Positions 979 through 33,635 are shown, counted from the stretch's first letter. The stretch is DNA of 64,000 nucleotides from Parcubacteria group bacterium Athens0714_12 (GCA_007378955.1 VMGY01000007.1:8644-72643), one strand, 5' to 3'. Notes: a model not told the origin generated them from the sequence alone. Numbers and translations are program-made.

Positions 979-3660
979 ATGAAAAAAGGCAAAAAAATGA
1001 ACAAAGCCAAAACAGAGAAGTTCGTCTATTTTTTCGGCGCCGGCAAATCCGACGGCAATGGCAAGATGAAAGATTTATTAGGCGGCAAAGGAGCGAACTT
1101 GGCGGAAATGACCAATATCGGCGTGCCCGTGCCCCCCGGTTTTACGATTATCACAAAGGTTTGCAATTATTTTTCTGCTCAAGGAAAAGTTCCAACCGAG
1201 TTAAACGGCCAGATGAGAACAGCTTTAATAAAATTGGAAAAGATTGCTGAAAAGAAATTCGGCGATGTCGCGAATCCTTTATTGGTTTCTGTCCGTAGCG
1301 GCGCTAAATTTTCTATGCCCGGCATGATGGATACGATTTTAAACCTCGGCCTGAACGATAAAACAGTTGAAGGATTGGCTGAATTGACCAATAACGCCCG
1401 TTTCGCTTACGACGCTTACCGCCGTTTTATTCAGATGTTTGGCAATGTGGTTTTGGGAATTGAAAAAGAAGTTTTTGAAGAAATTTTAACTCACAAAAAA
1501 GAAATTTTAAAAATAAAATTAGACATAGAGATGAATGAAACCGCTTTGAAAGAATTGGTCAGAGAGTTTGAGGAAACGATTAAAGAAAAAACAAAAAAGA
1601 CTTTTCCTCAAGATGTTTATCGCCAGCTGGAAATGGCGCGGGACGCGGTTTTTAAATCATGGAATAATCCGCGGGCCGTCACTTACCGACGGCTTAATAA
1701 AATCGCCGATGATTTGGGCACAGCGGTTAATGTTCAGGCAATGGTTTTCGGCAATATGGGCAATGATTGCGCCACGGGCGTCGGCTTTACCAGAAATCCG
1801 GCCACTGGCGAAAAAGTTTTTTACGGCGAATATTTATTAAACGCGCAGGGCGAAGACGTGGTTGCCGGCATTCGCACTCCTCGCCAAATTGCTGACTTGA
1901 AAAAAGAAATGCCCAAAGTTTTCGAGCAATTAAAAAAGATTACCAATAGATTAGAGAAGGATTATAAAGACGTGCAGGATTTTGAATTTACGGTGGAAAA
2001 AAATAAATTGTATATGCTTCAGACCAGAAACGGAAAAAGAACCGCTCAAGCGGCGGTTAAAATCGCCGTTGATATGGTCAAGGAAAAATTAATCAAAAAA
2101 GAAGAGGCATTGACGCGGCTTGAGCCGGAACAAATAGACCAGTTGCTCCATCCGATTTTTGACCCAAAGATTAAAATTAACGCTATTGTCAAAGGCCTGC
2201 CGGCTTCACCGGGCGCGGCCGTGGGCAAGGTTGTTTTTACGGCTGATGAAGCGGCGGCAGTCGGCGATAAGGAAAAAGTTATTTTAGTCCGCACGGAAAC
2301 TTGCCCTGATGATATACATGGCATGGATGCCGCTCAAGGAATTTTAACTAGCCGCGGAGGAATGACTTCGCACGCCGCGGTTGTCGCCAGAGGTATGGGC
2401 AAATGCTGTGTCGTTGGCTGCGAAGAAGTAAAAGTTAATGAAAAAAAGAAAGAATTAAAAATTAAAGATAAGACAATTAAAGAAGGTGATTGGATTAGTT
2501 TAAATGGTTCAACCGGAGAAGTGATTTTAGGAAAAGTCGCCACGATTGAGCCGAAATTAAGTGGCGAGTTCGGCGAATTTATGAAATGGGCGGACCAAAT
2601 CCGCAAATTAAAAGTTCGGGCCAATGCCGACATCCCCCACGACGCTCAAGTGGCGCGCGGTTTCGGCGCTGAAGGAATCGGCTTATGCCGTACTGAACAT
2701 ATGTTTTTTGCCGAAGACAGGTTGCCGATGATGCAGGAAATGATTTTGGCGGATAATGAAAATGCTCGCCGTAAAGCTTTAAATAAATTATTAAATTTGC
2801 AGAAAAAAGATTTTAAAGGATTGTTTAAAGAAATGAAAGGTTATCCGGTGACGATTCGTTTATTAGACCCTCCTTTACATGAATTTTTGCCCAAAAGGGA
2901 AGAATTAATGAAGGAAGCGGCGGTAATGAAAGCGACGGGAGTTGATAAAAAAGAGCTTGAAAAGAAAGAAAAATTATTAATCAGAGTTGAAGAATTGCAC
3001 GAAGTAAATCCAATGTTAGGCCATCGAGGCTGCAGATTAGGCATTGTTTATCCGGAAATTACCGAGATGCAAGTTAAGGCGATTGTATCAGCCGCTTGCG
3101 AATTAGCCAAGGAAAAAGAAAAAATTATTCCGGAAATAATGGTGCCTTTGGTCGGGCATGTCAATGAATTAAAAAATCAAAAAGAGCTGATTAAAAAAGT
3201 CGCCCAAGAAACGATGAAGAGCTATGGGGTGAAAATAAAATATATGGTCGGCACGATGATTGAAGTTCCGAGAGCGGCGGTGACTGCCAATGAGATTGCT
3301 CAAGAGGCGGAATTTTTCTCTTTCGGCACTAATGATTTGACACAAATGGGTTTTGGTTTCAGCCGCGACGACGCCGGCAAATTCATAAAAATTTATATTA
3401 AAGATAAAATTTTAGAAGAAGACCCATTTCAGGTTTTAGACCAAAATGGCATCGGCCAGTTAGTCAAAATAGGTGTAGAAAAAGGCAGAAAAACCAAAAA
3501 AGATTTAAAGGTGGGAATTTGCGGCGAGCATGGCGGCGAACCAAGCTCGGTGATATTTTGTCACAATGTCGGCTTGAATTATGTAAGTTGTTCGCCTTAT
3601 CGCGTGCCCATTGCCCGCTTAGCGGCCGCTCAAGCGGTGATTTTTGGAAAAAAGAAATAA
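979..3660 (+). CDS. ppdK: pyruvate, phosphate dikinase
   Basis: 893 aa; N-terminal YFFGAGKSDGNGKMKDLLGGKGANLAEM, PEP-utilising and phosphohistidine regions (GGMTSHAAVVARGMGKCCVVG), C-terminal TIM-barrel motifs. Confidence 0.93.
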   Translation: MKKGKKMNKAKTEKFVYFFGAGKSDGNGKMKDLLGGKGANLAEMTNIGVPVPPGFTIITKVCNYFSAQGKVPTELNGQMRTALIKLEKIAEKKFGDVANPLLVSVRSGAKFSMPGMMDTILNLGLNDKTVEGLAELTNNARFAYDAYRRFIQMFGNVVLGIEKEVFEEILTHKKEILKIKLDIEMNETALKELVREFEETIKEKTKKTFPQDVYRQLEMARDAVFKSWNNPRAVTYRRLNKIADDLGTAVNVQAMVFGNMGNDCATGVGFTRNPATGEKVFYGEYLLNAQGEDVVAGIRTPRQIADLKKEMPKVFEQLKKITNRLEKDYKDVQDFEFTVEKNKLYMLQTRNGKRTAQAAVKIAVDMVKEKLIKKEEALTRLEPEQIDQLLHPIFDPKIKINAIVKGLPASPGAAVGKVVFTADEAAAVGDKEKVILVRTETCPDDIHGMDAAQGILTSRGGMTSHAAVVARGMGKCCVVGCEEVKVNEKKKELKIKDKTIKEGDWISLNGSTGEVILGKVATIEPKLSGEFGEFMKWADQIRKLKVRANADIPHDAQVARGFGAEGIGLCRTEHMFFAEDRLPMMQEMILADNENARRKALNKLLNLQKKDFKGLFKEMKGYPVTIRLLDPPLHEFLPKREELMKEAAVMKATGVDKKELEKKEKLLIRVEELHEVNPMLGHRGCRLGIVYPEITEMQVKAIVSAACELAKEKEKIIPEIMVPLVGHVNELKNQKELIKKVAQETMKSYGVKIKYMVGTMIEVPRAAVTANEIAQEAEFFSFGTNDLTQMGFGFSRDDAGKFIKIYIKDKILEEDPFQVLDQNGIGQLVKIGVEKGRKTKKDLKVGICGEHGGEPSSVIFCHNVGLNYVSCSPYRVPIARLAAAQAVIFGKKK

Positions 3661-3666
3661 TTTTAA

Positions 3667-3698
3667 GGCGACTAAAATTTTGCAAAATTTTAGTCGCC
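3667..3698 (+). terminator. perfect 15-bp stem hairpin (ggcgactaaaatttt gca aaaattttagtcgcc) directly after the ppdK stop; terminator or operator-like palindrome
   Basis: Perfect palindrome read from the sequence; no long T-run after it, so intrinsic-terminator assignment is tentative. Confidence 0.45.
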
Positions 3699-3715: not shown

Positions 3716-3913
3716 ATGCCTTACAAAATTGAACAAGATTATGAAAAATGCATTGGCTGCGGGAGTTGTACTTCTGTCTGCGCCGGCAATTGGGAAATGA
3801 AAGACGACGGCAAAGCGCATCCAGTCCAAGAAGAAGTTGAAGAAATTGGTTGCAATAAAGAAGCGGAAGAAATCTGCCCGGTCCAATGCATTAAAATTAG
3901 TCCGCAAAAGTAA
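3716..3913 (+). CDS. small 4Fe-4S ferredoxin
   Basis: 65 aa; CIGCGSCTSVC and C...CP cysteine motifs. Confidence 0.7.
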   Translation: MPYKIEQDYEKCIGCGSCTSVCAGNWEMKDDGKAHPVQEEVEEIGCNKEAEEICPVQCIKISPQK

Positions 3914-4158: not shown

Positions 4159-4737
4159 ATGATATTATTTAATTATATGGATATGTTTGAAATAACTATT
4201 TGCGGGCGCGGCGGCCAAGGGTCAAAATTGGCAGCCCAAATTTTAGCCGAAGCGGCGCTGGAAGACGGAAAATACAGCCAGGCTTTTTCCCAATACGGGC
4301 CGGAAAGAACAGGCGCGCCGGTTACCAGCTACGCGAGAATTTCCAATCAGCCGATTTTGACGCATCAGCCGATTATAAAGCCCAACGCGGTTTTGATTTT
4401 AGATTCAAGTTTGTTGAAAGATTTGAATTTTAATAATGACGAAGTTTTGATTATTAATATTTGCCCTAATATAAAATTAGAAAAATTAAAAAATAAAACT
4501 TACAAGATAGACGCTTCTGACATTGCTTTAAAAATTTTAGGCAAGGACTTGCCGAATGTCGCCATGCTGGGAGCTTTGATAAAAATAACCGATTTATTGA
4601 AACTGCCTTCTTTGGAGAAAAGAATAAAAGAATATTTTGCCAAAAAATATAACGACAAAATGGCGGAACAAAATATTAAAGCGTTGCAAGAAGGTTATAA
4701 AACAATTTTATGCCCGGTAGTACAATTTCGAAAATAA
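4159..4737 (+). CDS. porG: pyruvate:ferredoxin oxidoreductase gamma subunit; the C-terminus is extended by 7 codons that read into the inserted element (native end predicted ...KTILC*)
   Basis: ICGRGGQG nucleotide-binding motif, PorG-like length; start uncertain (M at 4159, 4177 or 4183). Confidence 0.8.
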   Translation: MILFNYMDMFEITICGRGGQGSKLAAQILAEAALEDGKYSQAFSQYGPERTGAPVTSYARISNQPILTHQPIIKPNAVLILDSSLLKDLNFNNDEVLIINICPNIKLEKLKNKTYKIDASDIALKILGKDLPNVAMLGALIKITDLLKLPSLEKRIKEYFAKKYNDKMAEQNIKALQEGYKTILCPVVQFRK

Positions 4738-5061
4738 TTGTTAAACAAAAATTCGTCGCATATTACTGGGTTTACATTTTAGAAAGTGTAAACGATAAAA
4801 AAAGATATATAGGATTCGCTACTGATATCAAAAAAAGAATTAGAGAGCATAATAGCGGCATGGTTGTTTCCACAAATTATAGAAAACCGTTAAAATTGAT
4901 TTACGCCGAATTATGTTTAAACCAGAAAGATGCGAGAAGAAGAGAAAATTATTTTAAGAGAACTGGCGGTCGAAGATTTTTAGCCAAAAGACTAAAAGAG
5001 TATTATAAAATAAATAACAATTTTGAATAATAAATAATTCGAAGTTGTACTACCGGGTATG
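4709..5061 (+). mobile_element. small TIR-bounded element (4713-5057, 345 bp) carrying one GIY-YIG ORF, flanked by a duplicated TATG (4709-4712 and 5058-5061). It sits exactly at the porG stop / porD start overlap
   Basis: 20-bp terminal inverted repeats cccggtagtacaatttcgaa / ttcgaagttgtactaccggg (19/20). Removing the element restores an overlapping ...TTATGTTAAAA junction (porG TAA overlapping porD ATG). Confidence 0.75.
4710..5030 (+). CDS. stand-alone GIY-YIG nuclease domain protein (YhbQ/COG2827-like), encoded inside the TIR element; its start codon is the duplicated target ATG
   Basis: 106 aa; YYWVYILES...KRYIGFATDIKKRIREHN...R...N motif order typical of the GIY-YIG catalytic domain. 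Confidence 0.75.
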   Translation: MPGSTISKIIVKQKFVAYYWVYILESVNDKKRYIGFATDIKKRIREHNSGMVVSTNYRKPLKLIYAELCLNQKDARRRENYFKRTGGRRFLAKRLKEYYKINNNFE

Positions 5062-5340
5062 TTAAAATCGTCATCACAAATTCCATTGGGAGGCAATATT
5101 ATAAAGCCGGGTAATTCATCTGAATATAAAACCGGCAATTGGAAAACTTTTTCCCCGGTTTGGGACAAAGATAAATGCGCCCAATGTTTGATTTGTCCCG
5201 TGAATTGCCCGGAAAATTGCATTCCCGTGAAAGAGGGCAAGCGCCTTGAAACTAATTTTGATTTTTGCAAAGGTTGCGGAATATGCAGCCAAGTTTGTCC
5301 ATTCGGAGCGATACATATGAAAAAGTGCCAGACTTCTTAA
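5059..5340 (+). CDS. porD: pyruvate:ferredoxin oxidoreductase delta subunit (2x[4Fe-4S] ferredoxin)
   Basis: 93 aa; CAQCLICPVNCP and CKGCGICSQVCP motifs; start ATG supplied by the TATG at the element's right end. Confidence 0.85.
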   Translation: MLKSSSQIPLGGNIIKPGNSSEYKTGNWKTFSPVWDKDKCAQCLICPVNCPENCIPVKEGKRLETNFDFCKGCGICSQVCPFGAIHMKKCQTS

Positions 5341-5354
5341 ATTTTAAGTTATTT

Positions 5355-6527
5355 ATGAAAAATTTGAATAAAAATAAATATCAGGCGTTAATCGGCGGCC
5401 ACGCGGCGGCCGAAGCCATGCGGCAGATTAATCCGGAAGTAGTGGCCGCTTATCCGATTACGCCGCAAACGCCCATTATAGAAAAATTCGCCGAGTTTGC
5501 GGCTGATAAAAAAGTAGACACTGAATTTATTTGCGCGGAGTCCGAGCATTCGGCTTTAAGCGCCACGGTGGGCGCGTCAGCCGCCGGCGTGAGAGCGATG
5601 ACCGCCACTTCAAGCCAAGGGCTGGCTTTGATGAATGAAATTTTAAGCGTGGCGTCGGGCTTGCGTTTGCCGATTGTGATGCCAATGGTGAATCGCGCTC
5701 TTTCGGCGCCGATTAATATCCATTGCGACCATAGCGATTCAATGTCCGCCCGCGATTTGGGCTGGATTCAGATTTTTTGCGAGACAGCCCAAGAAGTTTA
5801 CGAATATACTTTTTTCGCTTTAAAGTTGGCGGAAAAAGTTTTATTGCCGGCCATGGTGATGCAGGATGGTTTTTCCACTTCTCACAATGTTGAGCCGGTT
5901 AAAATTTATCCTGATAAAATAATTAAAAAATTTATCGGCCAATACAAACCAAAATATTCTTTGCTTGATATAAAAAAACCCATTACTGTCGGGCCTTTGG
6001 TTTTACCTGATTATTATTTTGAAATTAAATATCAAGAAATAGAAGCGATGGAGGAAGCGCGAAAAGTTTATTTGGAAACAGGAAAAGAATTAAAAAAAAT
6101 TACCGGCAATAATTATCCTTATTTTGAGAAATATAAATTAGATGACGCCGAGGCGGCGATAGTAGTCAGCAGCTCTTCCGCCGGCACGGCCAAGGCAGTA
6201 ATAGATAAATTAAGAAAAGAAGGCAAAAAAGTCGGCTTGTTAAAACCAATTTTATTCAGGCCGTTTCCTCAAAAAGAAATAAGGGAAAGCTTAAAAAATT
6301 TAAAAATAATAGCGGTTTTGGACAGATCGGTTTCTTTCGGCGGCGAGGCGCCGCTTTTCAGCGAGATAAAAAATTCTCTTTATCCTTTGGATAAGAAGCC
6401 GTTGTTGCAAAGTTATGTTTTTGGCTTGGGAGGAAGAGATCTTTTTGAACAAGAAGTAGAAGAAGTTTTTGAAGAATTATTAAAAAATAAAACAGGGCAA
6501 GTTAAATATATCGGTCTAAGAAAATAA
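5355..6527 (+). CDS. porA: pyruvate:ferredoxin oxidoreductase alpha subunit
   Basis: N-terminal LIGGHAAAEAMRQINPEVVAAYPITPQT typical of PorA. I chose the ATG at 5355 because the track's 5265 start overlaps porD. Confidence 0.85.
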   Translation: MKNLNKNKYQALIGGHAAAEAMRQINPEVVAAYPITPQTPIIEKFAEFAADKKVDTEFICAESEHSALSATVGASAAGVRAMTATSSQGLALMNEILSVASGLRLPIVMPMVNRALSAPINIHCDHSDSMSARDLGWIQIFCETAQEVYEYTFFALKLAEKVLLPAMVMQDGFSTSHNVEPVKIYPDKIIKKFIGQYKPKYSLLDIKKPITVGPLVLPDYYFEIKYQEIEAMEEARKVYLETGKELKKITGNNYPYFEKYKLDDAEAAIVVSSSSAGTAKAVIDKLRKEGKKVGLLKPILFRPFPQKEIRESLKNLKIIAVLDRSVSFGGEAPLFSEIKNSLYPLDKKPLLQSYVFGLGGRDLFEQEVEEVFEELLKNKTGQVKYIGLRK

Positions 6528-6528
6528 A

Positions 6529-6679
6529 TATGCCCGGTAGGACAATTTTGACCAAGATTTTTCTTTTAGAAAAATCTAAAATTTACCAGGCTTAAAAATA
6601 ATTTATAATTTTATTAAAAGATAATTAATTTAAAAATTTTGACCAAAACAATAATGTCAAAATTGTACTACCGGGTATG
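6529..6679 (+). mobile_element. 143-bp non-coding miniature element (6533-6675) with the same TIRs as the 4713-5057 element, flanked by a duplicated TATG. It is inserted between the porA stop and the porB start
   Basis: TIRs cccggtaggacaattttgac / gtcaaaattgtactaccggg (19/20) share the core cccggtagtacaatt with the GIY-YIG element; contains an internal 9-bp stem hairpin; no ORF. Confidence 0.75.
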
Positions 6680-7585
6680 GATATCAAAACATTAGCTCAA
6701 AAAATAGATTCCGATAAAAAATTGGTTTCAGGCCACAGAACTTGTGCCGGTTGTGCCATTCCTATTATTGTCAGAACAATTTTATCTGCCACTGATAATT
6801 TTTTAGTAGCGGCTAATTCTACGGGTTGCATGGAAGTGACGACAACTATTTATCCTTATACTTCATGGAATATACCTTGGATTCATAATGCTTTTGAAAA
6901 TGTGGCGGCAACTCTTTCCGGAATAGAAGGCGCGTTTAAGGCTTTAAGAAAAAAAGGAAAAATAGACAAAGAAATTAAATTTGTGGCTTTTGGCGGCGAT
7001 GGCGGGCTTTATGATATAGGTTTGCAGTCATTGTCAGGCGCTTTGGAAAGAGGTCATAATTGCCTTTATGTTTGTTATAATAATGAAGCGTATCAGAATA
7101 CCGGCGGCCAACGTTCCTCGGGAACTTCAAAGGGTTCCATTACCACCACTACGCCAAAGGGTAAAAAAGAAGCCCGAAAAGATTTAATGCGGATTGTTTT
7201 GGCGCATCATATAGATTATGCCGCGCAGGCCGCGGTTCATAATATTTTAGACCTTTACCAAAAAGCGGAAAAAGCATTTAACGCAAAAGGCCCCAGTTTT
7301 TTAAATGTTTTATCGCCTTGCACTTTAAATTGGGGATTTATGCCAAATTCAACCATCAAGATTTCAAAATTGGCGGCTGACACTTGCTTTTGGCCGCTTT
7401 ATGAAGTAGAAAAAGGAAAATATAAATTAAATTATAATCCTTTTAAGAAATTGCCTCTTGAAGAATTTTTTAAGCTTCAAAAAAGATTTAGTTATCTTTT
7501 AAAGCCGGAAAATAAAAATTTTCTCAATGAAATTCAAAATGAAGTTGATGATAATTGGGAAGAGCTTCTAAAAAAATCCGGTTAA
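6677..7585 (+). CDS. porB: pyruvate:ferredoxin oxidoreductase beta subunit (TPP-binding)
   Basis: 302 aa; HRTCAGCA and GGDG TPP-binding motifs. Confidence 0.88.
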   Translation: MDIKTLAQKIDSDKKLVSGHRTCAGCAIPIIVRTILSATDNFLVAANSTGCMEVTTTIYPYTSWNIPWIHNAFENVAATLSGIEGAFKALRKKGKIDKEIKFVAFGGDGGLYDIGLQSLSGALERGHNCLYVCYNNEAYQNTGGQRSSGTSKGSITTTTPKGKKEARKDLMRIVLAHHIDYAAQAAVHNILDLYQKAEKAFNAKGPSFLNVLSPCTLNWGFMPNSTIKISKLAADTCFWPLYEVEKGKYKLNYNPFKKLPLEEFFKLQKRFSYLLKPENKNFLNEIQNEVDDNWEELLKKSG

Positions 7586-7665
7586 TTTTAATTTTTTTTA
7601 TTTACTGTTTATTAAAAAGTTGTAAATTGCCATCGCCATGCTGGTGAGTCATGAGTTCATAAATT

Positions 7666-7700
7666 TTTAGTTATAAGTTATTGGTTGTAAGTTGTAAGTT
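7666..7700 (+). repeat. GTTRTAAGTT short tandem motif (gttataagtt attg gttgtaagtt gtaagtt) adjacent to tRNA-Lys
   Basis: Copies of the same motif family at 7785-7820, 26061-26092, 29171-29203 (reverse) and 57511-57548 (reverse). Confidence 0.6.
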
Positions 7701-7705
7701 ATCCC

Positions 7706-7779
7706 TGGTGCCCCCACCAGGATTCGAACCTGGGTTTACTGCTTAAGAGGCAGCTACTCTACCATTGAGTTATGGGGGC
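7706..7779 (-). tRNA. tRNA-Lys (anticodon CTT)
   Basis: Manual fold: acceptor gccccca/tgggggc, anticodon stem ctgc/gcag with loop ctCTTaa, T-loop ttcgaat, encoded CCA. Confidence 0.85.
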
Positions 7780-7784
7780 TAAAA

Positions 7785-7820
7785 ATTTAGTTGTAGGTTG
7801 TTGGTTGTAAGTTGTAAGTT
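7785..7820 (+). repeat. GTTGTAAGTT short tandem motif adjacent to tRNA-Arg
   Basis: ttagttgtaggttgttggttgtaagttgtaagtt. Confidence 0.6.
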
Positions 7821-7826
7821 TATCTG

Positions 7827-7901
7827 TGGTGCCTTCGGAGGGATTCGAACCCCCAACAACTGCTCCGAAGGCAGTCGTGATATCCATTTCACTACGAAGG
7901 C
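7827..7901 (-). tRNA. tRNA-Arg (anticodon TCG)
   Basis: Manual fold: acceptor gccttcg/cgaaggc, anticodon stem actgc/gcagt with loop ctTCGga, T-loop ttcgaat, encoded CCA. Confidence 0.8.
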
Positions 7902-33173: not shown

Positions 33174-33277
33174 AGGAGTAATTGCTTATTGCTAATTGAA
33201 TAAAATTAAAAAAATATAACTAACTATTAACAATTATCAATAATAATATATATTTATTTTAATTCTATTGTGGTATA

Positions 33278-33595
33278 ATGTTATTGTCAATCCCGCACCT
33301 TTTAAGCACTAAGCTATGCATTGGGTTTATTATCAAAAGTAAAAAGAATAATTTATTATATATTGGCAGCACTCTTAATTTAGAAAAAAGATTTAAAGAG
33401 TTTTGTAACCATCTCAAAGAACATAATGAAGGGAAATCATTGTCAACTAAAAAATATAAACCTTGGGTTTTAGTTTATGCCGAATGTTATTTTTTAAAAG
33501 AAGATGCTTTATCTCGTGAACGAAATCTAAAATATTTTGGAAAAATTTACGCCCAACTTAAAAGAAGAATAAAAAATAGCATTCAGGGTGCTTAA
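33278..33595 (+). CDS. stand-alone GIY-YIG nuclease domain protein (YhbQ/COG2827-like), second copy; start and stop codons lie within the element termini
   Basis: 105 aa; IGFIIKSKKNNLLYIGSTLNLEKRFKEH...R...N GIY-YIG motif pattern; about 25% identity to the 4710-5030 protein. Confidence 0.7.
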   Translation: MLLSIPHLLSTKLCIGFIIKSKKNNLLYIGSTLNLEKRFKEFCNHLKEHNEGKSLSTKKYKPWVLVYAECYFLKEDALSRERNLKYFGKIYAQLKRRIKNSIQGA

Positions 33596-33613
33596 GAGGT
33601 GCGGGATCAATAA
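33281..33613 (+). mobile_element. second small TIR-bounded GIY-YIG element (about 333 bp), different TIR sequence family, inserted about 22 bp upstream of the pilM start
   Basis: Imperfect about 27-bp inverted repeats ttattgtcaatcccgcaccttttaagcac / gtgcttaagaggtgcgggatcaataa; ATG-containing flanks (taATG / ctttATG). Confidence 0.6.
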
Positions 33614-33635
33614 CTTTATGCTATAATATTTATAT

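Follow-up and report, generated by a model that had tools for sequence, protein, structure and literature searches.

A 143-bp element located between the genes porA and porB, here termed E2, is the subject of this analysis of a 64,000-nucleotide stretch of DNA from Parcubacteria group bacterium Athens0714_12 (GCA_007378955.1 VMGY01000007.1:8644-72643), which is referred to as the window and from whose first nucleotide positions are counted. Taken jointly with the explanation developed below, it is likely that E2, non-autonomous and internally degenerate, belongs to a family of very small mobile elements of the Candidate Phyla Radiation (CPR, or Patescibacteria). The family is widespread in these bacteria. 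Its members integrate at a pyrimidine followed by ATG, which in the overwhelming majority of cases is a gene's start codon, and invariably in sense orientation, with an ATG found on both sides afterwards. The left ATG, equipped with the initiation signals of the host, starts the product of the element, which is either a nuclease or a short open reading frame (ORF), and the right ATG restores the start of the host gene.

Properties of E2 and its site in relatives

E2 extends from 6533 to 6675, exactly where the original prediction had placed it, and like the other parts of the por operon described below it is found on the + strand. It is enclosed by two copies of TATG. The left one (6529-6532) is the original target copy, whose ATG at 6530 follows the TAA stop of porA after 2 nt, and the right one (6676-6679) is the duplicated copy, whose ATG at 6677 opens the 302-residue ORF of porB (6677-7585; the beta, thiamine pyrophosphate-binding subunit), the host gene that was entered at its start codon. 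The terminal sequences, cccggtaggacaattttgac at the left (6533-6552) and gtcaaaattgtactaccggg at the right (6656-6675), constitute a left (CCCGGTAGGACAATTTTGAC) and a right (GTCAAAATTGTACTACCGGG) inverted repeat of 20 nt, which are complementary at 19 of 20 positions and extend to 23 nt at 91% if the flanking ATG and TAT are included. The predicted RNA fold of E2 with its flanks has an energy of -42.8 kcal/mol compared to -17.9 +/- 3.1 kcal/mol for shuffled sequences (z = -8.0), and its stem of 23-24 bp reaches 24 bp once the U-A-U-G flanks are counted. The 9-bp stem of an inner AT-rich hairpin, noted previously, is present (AGATTTTTC-TTTTA-GAAAAATCT, 6555-6577, with arms at 6555-6563 and 6569-6577); no T-run follows this stem and it shows no terminator signature.

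The earlier claim that E2 contains no ORF is correct with respect to long ORFs but overlooks a frame of 21 codons (6530-6595, MPGRTILTKIFLLEKSKIYQA followed by a stop), which is opened by the captured left ATG, runs through the left arm with its initial codons formed by the inverted repeat, and is the longest sense ORF of the element. [quoted passage not shown] It is plausible that it derives by deletion from a nuclease-bearing copy. The resemblance of its MPGRTILTKIF.. to nuclease homologues such as MPGSTTLTKIYW.. is suggestive only of such an origin, and when the three frames of E2 were compared with a hidden Markov model of the homologues starting with 'MP..', the repeat-encoded N-terminus alone scored, at 3.7 bits, with no significant remnant of a GIY-YIG domain.

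Two relatives, L251 and L253, encode PorB proteins that are 87% identical to that of the window. In L251, whose PorA matches the 390 residues of the window protein (alpha subunit, 5355-6527), the porG-porD (..actaTATGttaaaa) and porA-porB (..aaaatgagTATGgatata) junctions are both uninterrupted and contain one TATG each. L253 has an insert of 130 bp, orthologous to E2, at the corresponding TATG, and its contig starts with the right end of an orthologue of the second element described below. Because one relative is empty with a single TATG while the other contains an orthologous insert, E2 is an insertion and not a native regulatory hairpin. The original prediction had singled out the porA-porB spacer, which, if identical in all relatives, would have pointed to a conserved regulatory structure; the spacer is found to differ.

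Since L253 was located through its PorB protein rather than through a DNA pattern, its comparison with E2 is unbiased. The arms of the two orthologues are identical at 38 of 40 positions and their two differences form a complementary pair (T>C at the left, A>G at the right), whereas their interiors are 67% identical, similar to the 62% at third codon positions of porB, which by this comparison places the arms under constraint and leaves the interior to drift. E2 has been inherited vertically at the porB start since at least the split from the L253 lineage. The inner hairpin is imperfectly preserved in L253. A sigma-70-like match (TTTACC-16-TATAAT, 6582-6609, +, 10 of 12 positions) lies inside E2 pointing at porB and is the best of the por region; the orthologue in L253 has not conserved it, and matches of this kind abound in AT-rich DNA (20 compared to 12.4 expected).

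A nuclease-bearing copy in the same operon

The operon porG-porD-porA-porB encodes a four-subunit 2-oxoacid:ferredoxin oxidoreductase (POR) and contains a second element, E1 (345 bp, 4713-5057), at the porG/porD junction. The inverted ends of E1 (4713-4732 and 5038-5057) are complementary at 19 of 20 positions and are flanked by TATG at 4709-4712 and 5058-5061. Its only ORF (4710-5030, 106 residues) encodes a GIY-YIG nuclease (Pfam PF01541, E = 3.6e-15, 56.4 bits compared to a gathering cutoff of 22.6), and elements of 339-345 bp hold nothing besides this gene. The ORF contains no start codon ahead of the domain other than the ATG of the flanking host sequence, and the left inverted repeat makes up the first 6-7 codons. 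The description of E1 as an autonomous-looking copy calls for one refinement, in that the nuclease ORF lacks a start codon belonging to the element and relies on a captured host ATG.

The insertion of E1 has extended the C-terminus of porG (POR gamma, 4159-4737) by 7 residues (..ILC-PVVQFRK followed by a stop), and its right-hand ATG is the start of porD (ferredoxin-like delta subunit, 5059-5340). Upon removal in silico of E1 and one TATG, the stop of porG again overlaps the start of porD (ATGTTAA), and the native PorG end, ..TIC followed by a stop overlapping the porD ATG, is present in L251.

E1 and E2 have in common their outer 13-15 nt and their TATG/TATG flanks. Relative to the 15-nt core of E1, the left end of E2 shows one difference and the right end is identical, in agreement with the single mismatch reported before. 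With up to two mismatches permitted, this core occurs four times in the 64 kb compared to 0.15 expected, and none of 100 shuffled sequences gave four; a 19-nt core including the ATG likewise occurs four times, compared to 0.01 expected. The common termini and flanks, combined with the emptiness of both junctions in L251, bear out the proposal that one family has inserted twice in this operon.

If E2 were instead a native regulatory hairpin of the por operon, acting as attenuator, processing site or thermometer, with its likeness to E1 coincidental, this would account for a stable structure between two cistrons and for an orthologous copy in one relative. We find this hardly credible in light of the clean single TATG in L251, which is an equally close relative, the presence of the same ends around a nuclease gene 1.8 kb upstream and in more than 100 elements at unrelated CPR genes, and a chance expectation for the shared ends of 0.01-0.15.

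The GIY-YIG nuclease and its relation to the ends

About 75 of 120 close homologues of the E1 protein start with MPG(S/R)T(T/I)S.., the translation of a left repeat reading ATG followed by CCCGGTAG(T/G)ACAAC... We have sampled eight nuclease-bearing elements (E1 of the window, L241, L255, L257, L258, L259, L260 and L261), in all of which the left boundary reads N-ATG followed by CCC(G/A)GTA.. and the right boundary ..C(C/T)GGG(T) followed by the ATG that starts the next gene. The genes found downstream include porD, a PrgI-like gene, folD, def, a Wzy-like gene and one for a TrwB-like ATPase. The stop codon of the nuclease is contained within the right repeat in L255, L257 and L260, 5-8 nt ahead of the host ATG, and compensatory changes in both arms are found in L241 and L260 (CCCAG/CTGGG and GTACTAC/GTAGTAC).

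The catalytic residues Tyr 22, Tyr 33, Gly 35, Arg 43 and Glu 79 are invariant in 64 homologues, and the wider nuclease family comprises 612 cluster representatives at E <= 1e-10. Both sequence and predicted fold identify UPF0213 BH0048 and Slx1 as nearest solved relatives, with I-TevI and UvrC far behind: phmmer detects 1zg2 at 6e-5, 1ywl at 5e-4 and Slx1 at 4e-3, and Foldseek assigns ranks 1-10 to UPF0213 and Slx1 proteins and rank 16 to I-TevI (E = 0.67). In an AlphaFold model with a mean predicted local distance difference test score of 83, the repeat-encoded first 18 residues are of low confidence, and Pfam and the model both describe a bare catalytic domain of about 85 residues without DNA-binding module. 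These comparisons place the nuclease in the Slx1/UPF0213 branch of GIY-YIG proteins, where a structure-specific activity would be predicted.

Two observations concern the ends themselves. In L259 (983-1039), a 31-nt mini hairpin consisting of ends only (CCCAGTAGCACAAC-TTCG-TTGTCCTACTGGG) is nested in the right repeat of the nuclease-bearing element, and the family can apparently shrink to its bare ends and insert into itself. The conserved family end CCCG-GTAG-TACAA (window 4713-4727 and other ends) contains GTAG, a tetranucleotide that heads many of the REP (repetitive extragenic palindromic) elements recognised by RAYT transposases (PMC3733652); this likeness may be a coincidence.

Miniature copies in CPR genomes and metagenomes

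A scan of genome contigs with a 14-nt pattern proved too loose, with about 110 of 120 loci being single chance matches in unrelated phyla, and a locus was retained only if a partner end lay no more than 3 kb away. These comprise seven paired-end elements of about 130 bp in metagenome-assembled genomes of CPR bacteria (Kaiserbacteria, Saccharibacteria and two assemblies labelled Bdellovibrionales), flanked by TATG/TATG, ATTG/ATTG, ATG/ATG or CCTG/CCTG. Metagenome contigs were scanned with a two-arm pattern that fixes 31 nt and permits lengths of 121-152 bp (loci L121-L240); the counts are lower bounds. This search returned at least 124 elements, at least 113 of them unique and all of those listed 130-137 bp long. 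With at least 113 distinct miniatures in metagenomes and seven more in CPR genomes, additional copies are abundant outside the window, in support of the suspected mobile family.

The interiors of the listed copies of about 133 bp are essentially unrelated, with a pairwise identity of 46%, and in nearly all cases translation of the downstream flank gives the N-terminal end of a housekeeping protein; as far as N-terminal sequence permits assignment, the host genes would encode MreB, NusB, NusG, DnaJ, UvrB, AtpD, Obg, S16, S8, CysS and others. Insertions at the start of orthologous genes in clearly diverged contigs are found in L155, L167, L132 and L176, and further pairs at the same gene are L149/L212, L154/L165, L153/L140, L152/L219 and L156/L182. 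The interiors of copies at the same gene are 60-71% similar compared to 46% for random pairs, and these insertions are therefore old and vertically inherited, and do not only reflect recent bursts.

Viral contigs contained no copies with either pattern and thus provide no sign of a phage vector. Neither Rfam nor the searchable literature yielded a description of the family, an absence that is no proof of its being unpublished. In Rfam, nothing reached the gathering threshold, and matches at E <= 10 were restricted to chance-level hits to unrelated eukaryotic families, so that no curated RNA family, be it intron, ribozyme, riboswitch or small RNA, was recovered.

The target site

Occupancy of start codons was counted after in silico removal of the elements, with a start defined as the ATG that comes first in an ORF with 60 or more codons. 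Among the matches listed, to which all counts of this section refer, 67 of 86 ATG-flanked sites (78%) coincide with the first ATG of an ORF, compared to 11% of all ATGs on the same contigs (p ~1e-46). The left ATG is preceded (position -4) by T (67%) or C (33%) and never by a purine, other flanking positions are unconserved, and no antisense copy is found. The pyrimidines ahead of left and right ATG are distributed asymmetrically, with 61 T/T, 25 C/T and 6 C/C pairs and none of the type T/C. The duplicated core is thus an ATG after a pyrimidine, where the target supplies the left copy and the element, for the most part, the T that precedes the right ATG. With respect to the postulated preference for TATG at translation starts, the preference for start codons is statistically strong, but the core has to be restated as pyrimidine-ATG.

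Sites without ATG account for about one fifth of those listed and mostly consist of alternating pyrimidine-purine tetramers on both sides (TACA, CACA, TGTA, TGTG, TATA); many of them are located immediately upstream of an ATG or a few nucleotides before one. A model resembling IS605, in which the right TATG would be the element end and no duplication would occur, was considered and appears less likely, since copies without ATG have matching repeats on both sides (TACA/TACA, CACA/CACA, TGTG/TGTG, CAAG/CAAG, GTAA/GTAA).

The asymmetry of the pyrimidines favours donor-templated copying over a staggered cut with fill-in. This bears on the possibility that E1 and E2 belong to a conventional TIR transposon moved in trans by another transposase, of the DDE type or other, with the GIY-YIG protein as passenger or accessory and E2 as ordinary MITE. 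The combination of TIRs, a short target-site duplication and miniature derivatives does form the classical picture of such elements, stand-alone GIY-YIG domains are without known transposition chemistry, and the copies of about 133 bp were not seen beside nuclease-bearing ones. The nuclease ORF is nevertheless fused to the ends, with its start codon in the flank, a repeat-encoded N-terminus in about 75 of 120 homologues and in several elements a stop in the right repeat; the 339-345-bp elements carry no other gene; and the duplication is imperfect and asymmetric (25 C/T, no T/C), so that we regard this possibility as unlikely. Among the insertion sequence (IS) families known to us, none has matching ends (CCCGG..) or a YATG target.

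A donor-derived T at the right junction, which suggests templated copying, would also suit free-standing homing-endonuclease cassettes that spread by homologous repair ('intronless homing'), with E2 as a decayed cassette; the GIY-YIG enzyme, the intergenic position and the existence of filled and empty alleles in relatives are in line with such a history. The insertions occur at more than 100 unrelated genes with only YATG in common and hence no long conserved homing site or flanking homology, the protein has none of the DNA-binding modules of I-TevI or Seg-type enzymes, and inverted ends, ATG duplication and abundant miniatures without ORF are foreign to homing cassettes, which makes this origin quite improbable.

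Translation through the elements

We define a relay as an open frame that leads from the captured ATG, in one step or two coupled ones, to an end about 12 nt or less from the host ATG. Among the listed miniatures, 80.5% have a frame that stays open for 30 codons or more and ends between -12 and +4 nt of the host ATG, compared to 30% of interior-shuffled versions, and the frames of the copies of about 133 bp have a median of 42 codons, which corresponds to the full element. If ribosomes are followed stepwise with restarts up to 12 nt from each stop, the host ATG is attained in 71% of copies compared to 28% of controls. Two routes dominate, either a single ORF of 43 codons, or MPGRTISNRLV with a TGA that overlaps the ATG of a second ORF of 32-35 codons; an open frame covering a whole element is exemplified by L145 (3445-3576). 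In 89 listed copies, the relay stop is a TAA or TGA of the right arm, in the frame of the host and 6 nt ahead of its ATG, and in 20 it is a TGA overlapping the host ATGA. The right arm reads CT(A/G)ACCGGG in 112 of 113 listed copies, which in the frame of the host ATG is TAA or TGA.

The relay peptides are not conserved and it is the openness of the frame alone that is kept. A conserved RNA structure of the interior was also considered for these copies; for the 113 listed ones RNAalifold gives the closing stem alone and the shapes of minimum free energy (MFE) vary, and the idea was rejected in favour of an open frame whose sequence is free. We read the open frame of the copies of about 133 bp as a translational relay from the host ribosome-binding site (RBS) to the duplicated ATG, which would explain the fixed orientation, the stop codon in the arm and the narrow range of lengths. 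Neither E2 nor its L253 orthologue contains a relay; the 21-codon ORF of E2 stops 81 nt before porB, and its right arm holds no stop codon.

Tolerance of the insertions could alternatively be conferred at the level of RNA, by an intervening sequence whose stem is excised from the transcript or cleaved inside it, RNase III being one candidate by analogy with intervening sequences of rRNA. Such processing would agree with the very stable stem of 23-24 bp (z = -8), the exclusive sense orientation and the conserved arms and drifting interior of E2, and insertions other than introns in the rRNA genes of CPR bacteria have been reported to contain GIY-YIG ORFs (PMC11270868). It appears very improbable, given that no ribozyme, intron or other Rfam family was matched even at E = 10, that MFE folds of the 113 listed copies show no conserved interior structure, that the selection for frames kept open up to the host ATG indicates translation through the element, and that cleavage without ligation would part the RBS of the host from its ORF.

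A proposed mechanism

The full-length form of the family, exemplified by E1, comprises about 340 bp with nothing besides two inverted ends of about 20 nt and one gene for a GIY-YIG nuclease of about 100 residues of the Slx1/UPF0213 type. This nuclease, presumed to be structure-specific, may recognise the hairpin or cruciform of the inverted ends and mobilise full-length and miniature copies alike, including E2 through the nuclease of E1. Insertion could proceed by donor-templated copy-in that is primed from microhomology at the ATG, because it is nearly always the T of the element that precedes the right ATG, whereas the left ATG follows whichever pyrimidine the target had. Host expression would be maintained by ribosomes that traverse the element. 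In the subfamily of about 133 bp, these might initiate at the original ATG, follow the open frame and stop 6 nt before the duplicated ATG, as in termination-reinitiation. In E2, the 24-bp stem is expected to sequester the AUG of porB; ribosomes ending at the stop of porA, 2 nt upstream, may reinitiate at the left ATG and, as they translate the 21-codon ORF, would open up the left arm and free the right AUG for initiation. Alternatively, the promoter-like site at 6582-6609 could give rise to a transcript that lacks the left arm.

Taken together, these features might define an unrecognised class of mobile element, with an autonomous form of about 340 bp that is below any known IS size, a sole Slx1-like nuclease acting on the hairpin of its own ends, specificity for start codons, capture of initiation signals that are handed back by termination-reinitiation, and E2 as a constrained resident miniature. 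We put this forward as a tentative proposal, in which our confidence stays somewhat below even.

Several considerations weigh against this proposal. To our knowledge, no experiment has a GIY-YIG domain alone excising or integrating DNA, and such a domain, which acts without covalent intermediate, would therefore require ligation or repair by the host. The covariation of the ends is also expected if one protein binds both of them and thus does not prove a hairpin. The bias for start codons may in part, and could largely, reflect survivorship in genomes that are about 85% coding, where a null model, albeit a crude one, that tolerates only YATG at start codons or between genes predicts about 30%. 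Within the 64-kb window only two family copies are present, and no nuclease-bearing copy was found within the fetched flanks on metagenomic contigs that hold copies of about 133 bp. Conservation of the arms among the listed copies is no evidence, because an exact arm pattern defined the sample; the apparent 100% conservation of arms among orthologous copies of about 133 bp was discounted as a sign of selection, with 31 nt being fixed by the search. Finally, E2 fails the test for a relay, and its compatibility with expression of porB is therefore inferred only.

Further features of the window

The host DNA is bacterial, with a G+C content of 35% and a tmRNA, and 'Parcubacteria group bacterium Athens1014_10' has proteins that are 100% identical to the E1 nuclease and to PorB. 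Directly past porB (region 7588-7901), genes for tRNA-Lys (7706-7779) and tRNA-Arg (7827-7901) are located on the minus strand, each followed by one copy of a 41-nt repeat rich in GTTGTAAGTT (7660-7700 and 7780-7820, 88% identical). Upstream of the operon, a perfect palindrome of 16+16 nt (GGCGACTAAAATTTTG/CAAAATTTTAGTCGCC, 3667-3698), probably a terminator or operator, separates an ORF for pyruvate phosphate dikinase (979-3660) from a small ferredoxin gene (3716-3913).

Another small GIY-YIG ORF, of 105 residues and unrelated, is found in an intergenic region at 33278-33595 (phmmer against E1 3e-8; window 33266-33628). It is enclosed by a different inverted repeat (33290-33309 and 33588-33607, 95%), which continues with a 3-nt bulge (33266-33286 and 33608-33628, 81%), and both its start and its stop are contained within repeats. 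An alternative frame reads MHWVYYQK followed by a stop, and the ORF may be frameshifted. Its arrangement suggests that a small GIY-YIG gene inside inverted repeats is a general theme with several families of ends.

Discussion

If the nuclease mobilises these elements, it would represent a new class of enzyme in bacterial transposition and the family the smallest self-contained mobile DNA known. A logic centred on the start codon, in which ATG and RBS are borrowed, the ATG is regenerated and ribosomes are handed over, would permit a parasite to be tolerated in the most compact genomes with operons left intact. The family accounts for the abundance of small 'GIY-YIG' ORFs starting with MPGSTTS.. 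in CPR annotations, and it serves as a warning that many CPR gene starts are parted from their real RBS by an insert of about 130 bp. The por operon, with two inserts in a central enzyme of energy metabolism, provides a natural test case for the maintenance of translation, and the pairing of a nuclease with a hairpin and a four-nucleotide target biased towards start codons could be of use as a tool.

Among known systems, bacterial MITEs and their parent IS resemble the family in their short length, TIRs, short direct repeat, ORF-less derivatives with shared ends, and filled and empty sites. They differ in that the sole gene found here encodes a GIY-YIG protein of about 100 residues rather than a DDE, HUH, serine or tyrosine transposase, in the start codon that the ORF borrows from a target which is essentially itself a start codon, entered in a single orientation, and in the asymmetric duplication, where the left base is that of the target and the right T that of the element; many of the miniatures are moreover translatable. 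In REPIN-RAYT systems, REP doublets that form hairpins flank one domesticated Y1 transposase of the IS200-like kind (PMC3116915). Both systems contain long hairpin-forming, non-autonomous units of about 100 nt that spread within a genome and a putative mobilising gene bracketed by the same inverted sequences, but RAYT is an HUH/Y1 enzyme whereas the flanked gene here encodes a GIY-YIG and not a Y1 protein, and REPINs are extragenic and not linked to start codons; they neither duplicate an ATG nor are read through by ribosomes. Elements of the IS200/IS605 type show a similar minimal size, DNA hairpins, insertion adjacent to a tetranucleotide and strict specificity for strand and orientation. 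They use a Y1 HUH enzyme, are devoid of TIRs and duplication and form a subterminal hairpin at each end, in contrast to the single hairpin formed here from both ends, the TIRs, the ATG duplication and the GIY-YIG protein as product of the only ORF.

Free-standing GIY-YIG homing endonucleases such as T4 Seg and Mob share with the family a nuclease gene between host genes, a selfish spread and probably repair-templated copying. They are equipped with DNA-binding domains and specific for a single long site in a single gene, whereas the present family couples a bare catalytic domain with inverted ends, miniatures and more than 100 unrelated sites defined by YATG only. Proteins of the Slx1 and UPF0213 (YhbQ) type provide the best matches in sequence and fold (1zg2, 7cq2/7cq3, 4xm5, 6seh), with a bare URI-type domain and a Y..Y-G..R..E core. 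Slx1 acts with Slx4 on branched repair intermediates and UPF0213 has no assigned role in mobility, in contrast to a gene that sits in inverted repeats and is tied to its site of insertion. A further parallel concerns eukaryotic Introners and Rickettsia palindromic elements, where the signature of insertion itself keeps the host gene functional, in the former through a duplication that provides splice sites and in the latter by remaining in frame. In the family described here it is the start codon that is regenerated and tolerance is apparently conferred by translational coupling, and the organisms and enzymology differ. The nearest mention in the searchable literature is of insertions in the rRNA genes of CPR bacteria, of which those with GIY-YIG ORFs match neither group I nor group II introns and many ORF-less ones of less than 200 bp are unexplained (PMC11270868). 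These rRNA-gene inserts could belong to the same family as E1 and E2.

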